IMG/VR virus record: IMGVR_UViG_2913112809_000002
Strand: one strand, 5' to 3'
Source of the DNA: a virus
Lineage: Duplodnaviria; Heunggongvirae; Uroviricota; Caudoviricetes
Length of the DNA stretch: 64,000 nt
Made by a program: the position numbers. Of this stretch, positions 39,001 to 42,000 are shown one piece after another. Within the stretch, counting starts at the first letter, position 1; every line of letters starts with the position of its first letter.

Positions 39001-42000
39001 GACAAAGCAGAAGTCGAACGGTGGGTGCGACTGCATGAAATAGGTGACTTTCGGGCAGAAATAACACCGCTTTATACAGCCCAACCAGCGCCGGTAGCTC
39101 CAGATGGTTGGATAAGCTGTAGTGATGCAGTTCCTGCGGAATACTGCGATGTGATTCTTCGCGATGATCTCGGGAATGTATTCCCCGGTTCCTGGGATAA
39201 GGTTTTTTGCCCCATTCGTGGCGGGAATAAGATGGCTTTTGTGGACAAAGACGGCATCGAAGTAGAGAGCTCAACTCACTGGATGCCGCTACCGGAACCA
39301 CCGCAGGAGGTGAATCGATGACCTGGCCTGAAGCATTCACAACGGTAGGAATTGCAATGGCGGTGGCGCTGGTGGTGTATTCGATTTGCCGCTGGGGTTG
39401 ACGTAATTACTAATCCGGGGCTATATTTCCGACGCGCCAGCAAAATCTGGCGTCGGGATTAGCACCCCGGATGTTTACGGAGCGATATGAGACGCGCCCG
39501 CGTCTTTTTTTCATATCGTTTGCACAGTCACATTCGCGATTTATGGCGGGCTGTGTGGGGGAGCCGAAAGGCTCGCCGGTTTCCGTACCCGGTAGTGCTA
39601 ACCCCGCACAGTTCGCCACCACGATGATTAGCACCTGACGGTGGCGATAATGTCCAAATGTACGGAGTAATCGTTATGACCACTCAGATTTCTGTCGAAA
39701 CTCTTTCCCCAATTACACACAACCAAATTCCCGTTATCACTACCGAGTTACTGGCACAGCTTTACTGTACCGAGATCAACAACATCAAAGTAAATTACAC
39801 CCGTAATTCCGAGCGTTTTGTTGAGGGTAAACACTTTTTCAAGATTGTTGGTGATGAGTTGAAAAAATTTGCGGGTTACTTTAAGTAACTCACAAACGCC
39901 TGTTTCCCCCAAAACCCGCTCCCTCATCCTCTGGACAGAACGCGGAGCAGCCCGCCACGCAAAAATGCTGGAAACCGAGCAGGCGTGGGAAGTGTTCGAA
40001 AAACTGGAAGACTGTTATTTCAGTCAGAAACGCCCGGAAGAAAAAGCACCGGATTTTATGCCACGCCGCTTTCTTCTCACTCTGGTCAATAACCAGTGGT
40101 ATGTTGAGCCTGTGTCTGCTGATGCGTTTGTGGCAACGCCGGACTCACTGGTGGCCAGGCTTCAGGCCGAGAGATATCTGTTCGATCAGCAGAGCATAAA
40201 GGAGATCATCCAGACCTGCCTGAAGATGATTTAAAAATTCATTCCGATATGGGAATCCCCATATCGGGAGAATATTACCACCGGGGATAAAATGATTTGC
40301 GGTGAAAGGGAAGTTAAGTAGAATTGCTGCGGGTGCTTGAGGCTATCTGCCTCGGGCATGAATACCAACGGCAGATAGAGAAAAGCCCCAGTTAACATTA
40401 CGCGTCCTGCAAGACGCTTAACATTAATCTGAGGCCATATCTATGCGACACATAGAGATTAGCCTCTTACGGACCGAAAGGTCAAGGAGAAGCAGGCTAT
40501 GAAGCAGCAAAAGGCGATGTTAATCGCCCTGATCGTCATCTGTTTAACCGTCATAGTGACGGCACTGGTAACGAGGAAAGACCTCTGCGAGGTACGAATC
40601 CGAACCGGCCAGACGGAGGTCGCTGTCTTCACAGCTTACGAACCTGAGGAGTAAGAGTGACCAGGCGAGGGAGAAATCCCTCGCCGCCTCTGACGTGTCA
40701 GGCATTCTCAAAGCACCCGCACTTAACCCGCTTCGGCGGGTTTTGTTTTTTTCTGGCATTCTGGTTTACAATCCACTCGTCAGCCTGAACAACTGACACC
40801 TGCTGCGCCAGCAGAGAAAACCGATGGCGCAAAATTCCAGACCACACAATTCTGATAATTCAGCCGTCTTTGCCAGCAGGCACGGGCGGCGTTCCCGCAC
40901 ATTCAAATCTGACTGGTTCCAGCACGACCCATGCACTGAAGAACAAGCCGAATGGCTAATTCAGAACTACCGCAGACGTGGGTATGAGTTTCAGAAAGAC
41001 CTCAGTCTTGACTTCCGACACTGGATAATCTCAGTCAGGCTGCCGTACTCCGAGCGCCCACCGCGTCCATCCCGCACATTCCAGCAACGGATCTGGAGGT
41101 AATGTGAGAGCATTACTGACACCTGAAATTGCCCCGCGTATGGGGATCGTACTGTTCAGGCCAGGTTCAGAGCTGATGCCATTGTTTATGCAGGGGCGTG
41201 TCTTGCTGGAGCCTGAGCCGGAACGTTATTCATCTTTTGCCAGTGGTGTCGTTCCGGCGGCATCGCAACCGCTGGCGGATGATCCTGTCGTTCGGGCCGT
41301 ATTCCGCAATGAGGCAGTGATCCGTCGTGCAGGTGGCGTGGAATGCCTTGAAAGCTGGTTACTTCGTGAAAAAGGCTGTCAGTGGCCTCATTCTGACTGG
41401 CACAGCGAGAACATGACCACAATGCGTCACGCGCCGGGAGCAATCCGTTTGTGCTGGCACTGCGATAATCAACTGCGCGATCAGTTCACAGAACGGTTGG
41501 AATCAATGGCAACGGATAACTGCGTCCGTTGGGTGTTGTCTGTTGTCCGTCGGGATCTCGGTTTTGATGAAAGTCACGTTGTGACAATGCCGGAACTGTG
41601 TTGGTGGCTGGTTCGTAATGACCTGGCGGATGCCTTACCTGAAAGCGCAGCCCGTAGGCTCTGAGATTACCGAAGCCTGCTGTGCAGTCTGTCACTCGGG
41701 AAAGTGACCTCGTACCTTCAGTTCCGGCCACCAGCATCATCCAGGATAAAGCGAAAAAGGTGCTGGCGCTGAAAGTGGATCCGGAATCGCCGGAGTCTTT
41801 TATGTTACGCCCCAAACGTCGCCGCTGGGTTAACGAAAAGTACACGCGCTGGGTTAAGACACAGCCGTGTGCATGTTGTGGTAAGCCAGCCGACGATCCC
41901 CATCACCTGATTGGTCACGGTCAGGGAGGGATGGGGACAAAAGCCCACGATATTTTCACGCTACCGCTGTGCCGGGAGCATCACAACGAACTTCATGCTG

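Follow-up and report, generated by a model that had tools for sequence, protein, structure and literature searches.

The closest described counterparts of the locus analyzed here are the immI region of phages P1 and P7 and the isrK-orf45-anrP region of the Salmonella prophage Gifsy-1. In immI, the C4 antisense RNA, together with the sites a1/b1 and a2/b2, controls icd-ant. In the PL transcript of phage lambda, the sib element is located beyond int, on the far side of attP, and affects int mRNA via RNase III. The immI antisense system was reportedly described by Citron and Schuster in 1990 and 1992. The models for the two closest systems differ: in P1, a1/b1 serves as a decoy, whereas in Gifsy-1, IsrK refolds the mRNA. 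For Gifsy-1 IsrK, the compensatory pairs G28-C162 and G31-C159 have been published (PMC4825925), and Hershko-Shalev et al. (2016) liken this RNA to the CI RNA of satellite phage P4 (PMC4825925). As described, the c4-a1b1 motif presents a1 in the loop of a hairpin, with b1 following shortly 3′, and the outer stem is an optional third stem (Weinberg 2010). A 2025 review places IsrK and c4 in separate entries.

The window is a 64,000-nucleotide stretch of DNA from a virus of the Caudoviricetes (IMG/VR record IMGVR_UViG_2913112809_000002). Within it, the segment at 39413–39511 is IsrK, already catalogued as a prophage small RNA. It bears the C4 target sites a1/b1 and makes up the 5′ portion of a previously known RNA switch over an antirepressor gene (Table 1). 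Family membership is demonstrated by an Rfam search, a check that the initial annotation had proposed. Three families were matched, all above the gathering score, on the plus strand and in the expected order: the IsrK-family sRNA (RF01394; 39434–39510 against model positions 1–77, 74.4 bits versus a gathering score of 50, E = 4.6e-14), c4-a1b1 (RF03163; model positions 1–53, full length, 47.1 bits, marginally over the gathering score of 46.7), and the C4 antisense RNA (RF01695; 78 bits versus 45, E = 1.5e-13). With high confidence, the segment is assigned as the 5′ module of a P1 immI-type RNA switch that forms a mobile cassette in lambdoid prophages. The earlier suggestion of a stand-alone sRNA is partly supported: the full-length IsrK match, the promoter-like site, and the terminator support an sRNA, but one that is the 5′ module of an IsrK (a1/b1)/C4/antirepressor cassette rather than standing alone. 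As a catalogued IsrK within an already known RNA switch, the segment is ordinary. The element holds no novelty, being covered by three curated Rfam families, by public phage annotations, and by copies of 97% identity in many E. coli prophages.

Table 1 Features of the IsrK/C4/antirepressor cassette, in coordinates of the window
Feature	Position	Strand	Sequence, basis or remark
Sigma-70 promoter-like site	39398–39427	+	−35 TTGACG 39398–39403, 18-nt spacer, −10 TATATT 39422–39427; scan 10/12
5′ arm of outer stem	39413–39420	+	AUCCGGGG; within promoter spacer
Outer stem	39413–39420 : 39465–39472	+	AUCCGGGG : CCCCGGAU; fold
c4-a1b1 motif, structured upstream target of C4 RNA	39421–39473	+	RF03163
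Inner hairpin	39429–39440 : 39447–39456	+	CCGACGCGCCAG : CUGGCGUCGG; fold
IsrK-family sRNA, ~77 nt (hairpin P1, hairpin P2, linker, terminator)	39434–39511	+	RF01394, fold
Hairpin P1 of IsrK	39434–39453	+	fold
Hairpin P2 of IsrK	39454–39469	+	fold
a1, in P2 loop	39459–39465	+	UUAGCAC; complement of C4 a′
b1	39476–39482	+	UACGGAG; 6 Watson-Crick pairs and one G-U with C4 b′
Intrinsic terminator	39489–39511 (stem 39489–39506, T run 39505–39511)	+	7-bp stem, GCCC loop, seven T
C4 antisense RNA, STnc1160 equivalent	39539–39623	+	RF01695; fold −48.5 kcal/mol
b′ of C4, in second-hairpin loop	39581–39588	+	UUCCGUAC; P(unpaired) 0.87
a′ of C4, in single-stranded joint	39595–39601	+	GUGCUAA; P(unpaired) 0.99
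a2, in antirepressor mRNA leader	39628–39634	+	UUAGCAC
b2	39660–39667	+	GUACGGAG; contains GGAG Shine-Dalgarno, 8 nt before ATG 39676
Antirepressor-like gene, ORF6N	39676–40234	+	Pfam ORF6N, E = 5.3e-13

The nested hairpin and the terminator noted at the outset were recovered, from sequence and fold, at exactly the same positions. The minimum-energy fold of 39413–39511 (−43.7 kcal/mol) has the structure first described and is more stable than all 200 shuffled versions of the segment (mean −30.0, sd 3.5; z = −3.88); for 39413–39700, the comparison with shuffles gives z = −5.42. Among 11 homologues, pairing is retained at 98.6% in the first hairpin, six of whose seven pairs have changed on both sides; at 87.5% in the outer stem, where four of eight pairs have done so; and at 81% in the terminator. 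The observed covariation score was reached by none of 500 shuffles. A counterpart of the outer stem (UUCAGGC/GCCUGAA) occupies the same place in P1, and all 95 surveyed IMG/VR loci have five or more consecutive T 42–50 nt 3′ of a1.

The further hairpins that had been reported up to 39650, including a GNRA tetraloop, are likewise present and turn out to be the C4 antisense RNA. The tetraloop caps the hairpin GAGCC-GAAA-GGCUC (39561–39574) within the long closing stem of C4, which is completed by a second hairpin and a 3′ ACCA tail. The minimum-energy fold of C4 agrees with the RF01695 model. Its a′/b′ segments are complementary both to a1/b1, where b1 follows 10 nt past a1, and to a2/b2. C4 also carries the sequence prerequisites for RNase P, namely a closing stem that resembles an acceptor stem and, at 39618–39621, a 3′ ACCA. 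By analogy with P1, processing of the neighboring C4 by RNase P, and not by RNase III, is plausible.

Comparison of loci demonstrates that the sites co-vary. Among ten distinct homologues compared by eye, a′/a1/a2 and b′/b1/b2 vary between loci yet are complementary within each, the E. coli 2014C-3061 locus having the same sites as the window. In P1, Gifsy-1, Stx phages, APSE-7, and 95 IMG/VR loci, the three site sets vary in concert. A three-way match at a was found in 95 of 122 distinct IMG/VR pattern matches, and exact three-way matches at two separate sites in 76 of the 122. Both the a and the b sites occur in many independently assorted variants, a variety that bears on cross-talk or insulation among co-resident prophages. 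These exact-site tables were used in place of a duplexfold matrix of cognate and non-cognate pairs, in which generic GC-rich arms dominated and specificities were not cleanly separated. Almost no intermolecular pairs were obtained when IsrK was cofolded with C4, or C4 with the leader, in RNAcofold; this result is uninformative because loop–loop contacts between folded RNAs cannot be represented by the method.

A sigma-70 promoter-like site precedes the sRNA and matches the position of the annotated P1c4 (P51b) promoter of phage P1. Transcription from this site is predicted to start near G39434. The distance from the end of the −10 element to the start of a1 is 32 nt in the window and in P1 alike, and among the 69 IMG/VR loci with a −10-like hexamer, 63 show a spacing to a1 of 31 nt, which is the window's own value as counted in that survey. 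Both the promoter-like site and the terminator are conserved among homologues. The 5′ arm of the outer stem falls within the promoter spacer, upstream of the predicted start; hence, this stem would be possible only in transcripts initiated farther upstream. The a1 site has a predicted P(unpaired) of 0.97 in an RNA that begins at 39434 versus 0.57 in one that begins at 39413.

The initial annotation was correct in placing PL-operon genes to the left: N (32517–32936), a cIII thermometer (34049), and anti-RecBCD gene neighbors lie there on the same strand. It had proposed a lambda-type retroregulatory structure at the end of this operon. In a sib-like element of this kind, RNase III would cut a PL-distal structure in antiterminated transcripts and destabilize the upstream message. 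The hairpin and terminator 3′ of PL-type genes do resemble lambda sib/tI, and in read-in transcripts the outer stem and inner hairpin together would give one long, interrupted duplex. This proposal is nevertheless highly improbable. Unlike lambda, the locus has neither int nor attP; no integrase or excisionase ORF was found in the interval from N (32517) to 39400. A comparable intact prophage, by contrast, runs from DUF551 to Eag, xis, and int. The same cassette is found elsewhere in other operon positions: 3′ of ninE in the PR operon of Stx phages, 3′ of Q in Gifsy-1, and 3′ of a DUF1133 protein, in the Q position, in E. coli 2014C-3061. Together with the cassette's own conserved promoter-like site, these nin and Q locations leave a sib-type, end-of-PL reading unsupported. 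Moreover, the conserved, co-varying complementarity is to a downstream antisense RNA, C4, and not to an upstream gene. The presence of PL genes beside the cassette appears to be the outcome of joining two prophage halves. For annotation, the region is better labeled as an IsrK (a1/b1), C4, and antirepressor cassette than as a PL-operon retroregulator.

Still less probable is that the segment only terminates or insulates transcription where mosaic modules meet and has no function as an RNA. The strong intrinsic terminator would suit such a role, as would the start, exactly at 39413, of a 97%-identity block common to E. coli prophages. However, both hairpins 5′ of the terminator are conserved and show compensatory changes, a1/b1 track the a′/b′ of the neighboring C4 over many specificity types, and the Gifsy-1 homologue is an experimentally characterized sRNA (PMC4825925). 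A primarily trans-acting, Hfq-dependent role of IsrK on host mRNAs, with the link to C4 and ant secondary, is suggested by the Rfam family name (isrK Hfq binding RNA) and by an RNA with a terminator, U tail, and A-rich loops, but it is just as improbable. IsrK is not known to have a host target, and variation in this RNA falls precisely on the sites matching its cognate C4, which would be expected were C4 the partner under selection.

The assignment to the immI-type switch is also supported by the characterized locus of Gifsy-1, which has the same Rfam layout as the window. There, a promoter, two hairpins, a terminator, a C4-type RNA (STnc1160), and an ORF6N antirepressor follow in the same order, the antirepressor product begins MTTQISVE in both, and the conserved AUG at the C4 5′ end, 39543 here, is the equivalent of the orf45 AUG (A107). 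With +1 set at position 1344 of the Gifsy-1 locus (L012), the published pairs G28-C162 and G31-C159 map exactly to a1 UUGGCGU and a′ ACGCCAA. What has been validated experimentally in Gifsy-1 as IsrK-orf45 pairing is the a1:a′ pairing of a P1-type C4 system, an identity that may interest specialists. The two loci differ in their a′/b′ (ACGCCAA/CGGUGAU in Gifsy-1 versus GUGCUAA/UUCCGUAC here) and in the location of Q, which is directly upstream in Gifsy-1 and 3 kb downstream in the window. The APSE-7 record is annotated in the same order, from isrK through C4 to a BRO antirepressor.

The conserved layout extends to P1 (NC_005856), where a promoter (a promoter-like site in the window), a1, b1, C4, a2, b2, and a start codon follow one another in the same order and at the same spacing. 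As in P1 and P7, b2 lies over the ribosome-binding site and a′/b′ are predicted to be unpaired; the ACCA-type 3′ tail of C4 is like that on the P1 RNase P substrate. In contrast to P1, the window has a strong terminator between b1 and C4 (P1 falls below the isrK gathering score), an ORF6N antirepressor rather than Ant1/Ant2, no evident C1 operator, and a lambdoid rather than a plasmid prophage context. In addition, the icd leader of P1 and P7 is translationally coupled to ant, whereas no icd homologue or icd-like leader gene was found at the locus; the antirepressor-like ORF comes straight after b2, beginning 8 nt past it. The CI RNA of P4, with seqA and seqC, is similar in that a processed small RNA lies between upstream and downstream complementary sites on one transcript and controls distal genes. 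CI differs in that it works by premature transcription termination of replication genes, and the likeness considered here is one of layout.

The following scheme is inferred as regards where transcription starts, how efficiently it terminates, how the RNAs are processed, and in which direction regulation acts. Transcription would begin near 39434 from the promoter-like site, and most transcripts would end at the terminator, yielding an IsrK-family sRNA of ~77 nt that displays a1 and b1. Read-through transcripts would include C4, a2/b2, and the antirepressor ORF. In P1, RNase P excises C4 from such transcripts. Through its unpaired a′/b′, C4 would then bind a2/b2 and, because b2 contains the Shine-Dalgarno sequence, block antirepressor translation, so that the prophage stays quiet. 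On IsrK, a1/b1 would present C4 with identical targets. In cis, a1/b1 may keep the read-through RNA inactively folded; in trans, they may compete for a′/b′ and relieve the block, as shown for Gifsy-1 IsrK. More speculatively, IsrK-type sRNAs might be sponges for the neighboring C4, with the a/b sites as an address code and the outer stem telling the origin of the transcript; we regard this extension as possible but doubtful. If it is true, IsrK-type sRNAs in general would be anti-antisense sponges, and independently reassorting a/b sites would form a combinatorial code for which co-resident prophages switch on each other's antirepressors and which are insulated. The outer stem could separate own-promoter transcripts, with a1 exposed, from early-operon read-in, with a1 partly buried. 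The extension as a whole would merge the P1 and Gifsy-1 models, which are handled apart from each other in the literature consulted.

In the window, the output gene of the switch is itself altered. Homologues of the ORF6N antirepressor-like ORF carry an Ant annotation. Here, unlike in Gifsy-1, the gene is split into 39676–39888 and 39869–40234 by a frameshift in an A6 run (39862–39867), which is A5 in loci L001 and L003, and the frame change is seen in tblastn comparison with intact homologues. This antirepressor gene is probably a pseudogene, and the switch may therefore lack a functional target in this window. The orf45 equivalent that starts at AUG 39543 is shorter than its Gifsy-1 counterpart; its 31 codons end at 39638, 37 nt short of the ant ATG, so that translational coupling of the Gifsy-1 type may not apply. 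Two further sets of ORFs were considered at the locus. An ORF at 39487–39627, which starts inside the terminator, was rejected as a leader peptide because the aligned homologues (e.g., Stx1_AU5 and VT2-Sakai) show no ATG at that position. Minus-strand ORFs over the region (e.g., 39410–39634) were taken as chance, since the RNA-family matches across 39413–39680 are exclusively on the plus strand.

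A scan of the whole window against Rfam at the gathering threshold gave three matches on the plus strand in and next to the structured segment at 39413-39511, which overlap or adjoin one another: c4-a1b1, isrK and C4 antisense RNA (see table). The element is already catalogued, as a further copy of the cassette composed of IsrK (carrying sites a1/b1), C4 and an antirepressor gene. The initial annotation had offered a stand-alone small RNA as its alternative reading; given the isrK match this was essentially right, except that the RNA does not stand alone, as its partner C4 lies downstream. 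The further hairpins that it described, including a GNRA tetraloop, are real and correspond to the C4 RNA, in which GAAA at 39566-39569 caps the second stem, as noted for this family by Weinberg et al.

Coordinates of the cassette and of the genes that precede it in the window
Feature	Position	Strand	Details
O and DnaB-type helicase genes	27160-29480	-	
cI-type repressor gene	30488-31195	+	
N gene	32517-32936	+	
Lambda cIII RNA thermometer	34049-34107	+	RF01804, full-length match, 86 bits
DUF551 gene	38701-39321	+	last of the further early-left-type genes
Outer stem	39413-39420 with 39465-39472	+	AUCCGGGG with CCCCGGAU (sequence)
c4-a1b1	39421-39473	+	RF03163, 47.1 bits (cut-off 46.7)
Inner hairpin	39429-39440 with 39447-39456	+	CCGACGCGCCAG with CUGGCGUCGG (sequence)
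isrK	39434-39510	+	RF01394, 74.4 bits (cut-off 50), E = 4.6e-14
a1	39459-39465	+	UUAGCAC, complement of a'; loop of second IsrK hairpin
b1	39476-39482	+	UACGGAG, complement of b'
Terminator	39489-39506, T run to 39511	+	7-bp stem, GCCC loop, seven T
C4 antisense RNA	39539-39623	+	RF01695, 78 bits (cut-off 45)
b' of C4	39581-39588	+	UUCCGUAC, P(unpaired) 0.87
a' of C4	39595-39601	+	GUGCUAA, P(unpaired) 0.99
a2	39628-39634	+	UUAGCAC, complement of a'
b2	39660-39667	+	GUACGGAG, complement of b'
ORF6N antirepressor-like gene	ATG at 39676	+	Pfam ORF6N, E = 5.3e-13
The same gene as two ORFs	39676-39888 and 39869-40234	+	

The nested hairpin and terminator are present as first described, in both sequence and fold. 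The minimum-energy fold of 39413-39511 (-43.7 kcal/mol) recovers the nested structure, and none of 200 dinucleotide shuffles folds as well (mean -30.0, sd 3.5; z = -3.88), placing the structure beyond chance; for the larger block 39413-39700, z = -5.42. When 11 sequences of the IsrK region are aligned, the first IsrK hairpin is 98.6% paired, with both sides changed in six of its seven pairs; pairing is 87.5% in the outer stem (both sides changed in 4 of 8 pairs) and 81% in the terminator. The structured RNA element is real and conserved. The predicted transcription start falls downstream of the outer stem's 5' arm, so only transcripts entering from upstream can form the nested structure. The predicted P(unpaired) of a1 is 0.57 in such read-in RNA versus 0.97 in RNA from the predicted start.

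The complements of the unpaired C4 segments a' and b' are each found twice in the window, in IsrK (a1, b1) and in the antirepressor leader (a2, b2). A GGAG Shine-Dalgarno sequence lies inside b2, which is separated by 8 nt from the start codon of the ORF6N gene. Homologues of this gene are annotated as antirepressor Ant or ORF6N proteins. Relative to intact homologues, the window's gene is split by a frame change at an A6 run (39862-39867) that is A5 in the E. coli homologues L001 and L003. The extra A either makes the antirepressor a pseudogene or is a sequencing error in the homopolymer; the cassette's RNA elements look intact.

In Rfam, the isrK-then-C4 tandem is found in E. coli prophages, Stx1 and Stx2 phages, phiP27, APSE-7 and Gifsy-1, and c4-a1b1 plus C4 in P1. 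Across the C4 RNA alignment the stems are conserved and a' and b' are variable, and in every locus compared a1/a2 and b1/b2 have changed so as to remain complementary to a'/b'. Examples are P1 (a' CTGTCAA, target TTGACAG; b' CACTAACG, target TGTTAGTG), Stx1 AU5 (a' ACGCCAA, target TTGGCGT; b' CCTTTTTC, target GAAAAAGG) and APSE-7 (a' GTCTCAA, target TTGAGAC; b' CCTTGTTAGC, target GCTAACAAGG). Scanning IMG/VR with a C4 pattern gave 122 distinct instances, with a three-way a match in 95 and exact three-way matches at two separate sites in 76. In all 95 three-way-a loci, five or more consecutive T follow a1 at a fixed distance of 42-50 nt. A -10-like hexamer was present in 69 loci and lies 31 nt from a1 in 63 of them, which is the window's own spacing under the script's convention. 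E. coli PSJ-22 has the window's b' but another a', and Stx2a_F451 has its a' but another b'. Assortment of the a types is independent of the b types and suggests that specificity determinants are exchanged as modules. By eye, the survey of loci L001-L132 contains about 20 a' and 25 b' types. On one viral contig (L046, IMGVR_UViG_2671181028_000005, 9709-11209), a unit made of an isrK-C4 pair and then an ORF of about 120 aa occurs three times in tandem, spaced 656 nt apart, and the a'/b' pair differs from unit to unit. Another contig (L082) carries two cassettes (3946-4147 and 7208-7406) with a common a' and different b'. Co-resident units seem not to share both recognition sites. A cassette 97.8% identical to the window's is found in PP818812.1 (15568-15834), named Actinobacillus phage vB_Apl-pPE4; this is unexpected for a Pasteurellaceae host, and the record may be a mislabelled or contaminating enterobacterial phage.

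The layout in the window matches the annotation of P1 immI (promoter P1c4, a1, b1, C4, a2, b2, icd start). By the P1 annotation and the window coordinates, the end of the -10 element precedes the first base of a1 by 32 nt in P1 and in the window alike, and the promoter-like site at 39398-39427 is the positional equivalent of P51b in P1. In Gifsy-1, the isrK promoter gives rise either to terminated transcripts, which are IsrK, or, by read-through, to an inactive isrK-orf45-anrP mRNA, whose translation IsrK switches on in trans; the pairs G28-C162 and G31-C159 were confirmed through compensatory mutation (Hershko-Shalev et al., PMC4825925). When the Gifsy-1 sequence is numbered from the first base of its Rfam isrK match, a1 (UUGGCGU) contains G28 and G31, a' (ACGCCAA) of the C4 match contains C162 and C159, and A107, of the first orf45 AUG, belongs to the conserved AUG at the C4 5' end. 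What was published as "IsrK binds orf45" is therefore a1 contacting a' within the C4 system. STnc1160 is the C4 RNA of Gifsy-1. Hershko-Shalev et al. likened the locus to P4 CI RNA, not P1 C4 (PMC4825925), and IsrK and c4 are separate entries in a 2025 review; adjacent isrK, C4 and BRO antirepressor annotations are already found in the GenBank record of APSE-7 and in its paper.

The proposed mechanism combines the family membership, complementarity, co-variation and site accessibility observed here with a start site, termination, processing and sign of regulation modelled on P1 and Gifsy-1. Transcription from the promoter-like site would start near 39434; stopping at the terminator would yield IsrK, and read-through a precursor with C4, a2/b2 and the antirepressor ORF. 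By analogy with P1, RNase P would release C4, whose closing stem and 3' ACCA are present in the window. Through a':a2 and b':b2 pairing, C4 would occlude the ribosome-binding site, and a1/b1 of IsrK would compete for the same C4 segments, relieving repression. That IsrK RNAs are general C4 sponges, that a combinatorial a/b code governs prophage cross-talk and that the outer stem senses transcript origin is a tentative, rather doubtful extension.

The initial annotation had preferred a lambda-type retroregulatory structure at the end of the PL operon. The plus-strand cIII thermometer match fixes the direction of the early-left operon, and the cassette does physically follow PL-type genes in the window. 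This is not its usual place, as other phages differ: it follows ninE in Stx phages, Q in Gifsy-1, a DUF1133 protein in the position of Q in E. coli 2014C-3061 and replication-region genes in E. coli PSJ-22. This sib-type reading fails because there is no int upstream and the element has a promoter-like site of its own and a downstream partner. In a comparable intact prophage, DUF551 is followed by Eag, xis and int; no xis, int or att was found between the PL-type genes (30488-39321) and the nin-type region (39413 onward). The plus strand downstream of DUF551 instead carries IsrK-C4-ant, hok/sok, DUF968, RusA, Q and two tRNAs, beyond which a 641-aa plus-strand ORF is a likely candidate for the large terminase. 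A block of 97% identity with E. coli prophages starts exactly at 39413. The window appears to combine two lambdoid prophages, through recombination or rearrangement, with a junction near 39320-39413.

The two prophage arms diverge from the centre. Within 1-29480, the minus strand encodes O/DnaB, two tRNAs and large ORFs. The tRNA genes are tRNA-Thr(UGU) and tRNA-Asn(GUU) in this arm (22853-23008, minus strand) and tRNA-Thr(UGU) and tRNA-Gly(UCC) downstream of Q (43475-43628, plus strand). A hydrophobic 27-codon ORF (39319-39402; MTWPEAFTTVGIAMAVALVVYSICRWG), whose stop codon overlaps the -35 hexamer of the isrK promoter-like site, is about 89% conserved along with the cassette in E. coli PSJ-22. 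Directly downstream of the cassette (40331-40654) is a hok/sok type I toxin-antitoxin system, consisting of a sok RNA match (40331-40501; RF01794, 101 bits) and a Hok/Gef ORF (40499-40654). The DUF968 gene (41104-42092) appears to be split, a second possible pseudogene of the right arm: the C-terminus of ORF 41104-41664 matches profile positions 2-27 and ORF 41682-42092 matches 37-171, and in E. coli PSJ-22 the DUF968 gene at the same position is undivided (1059 bp).
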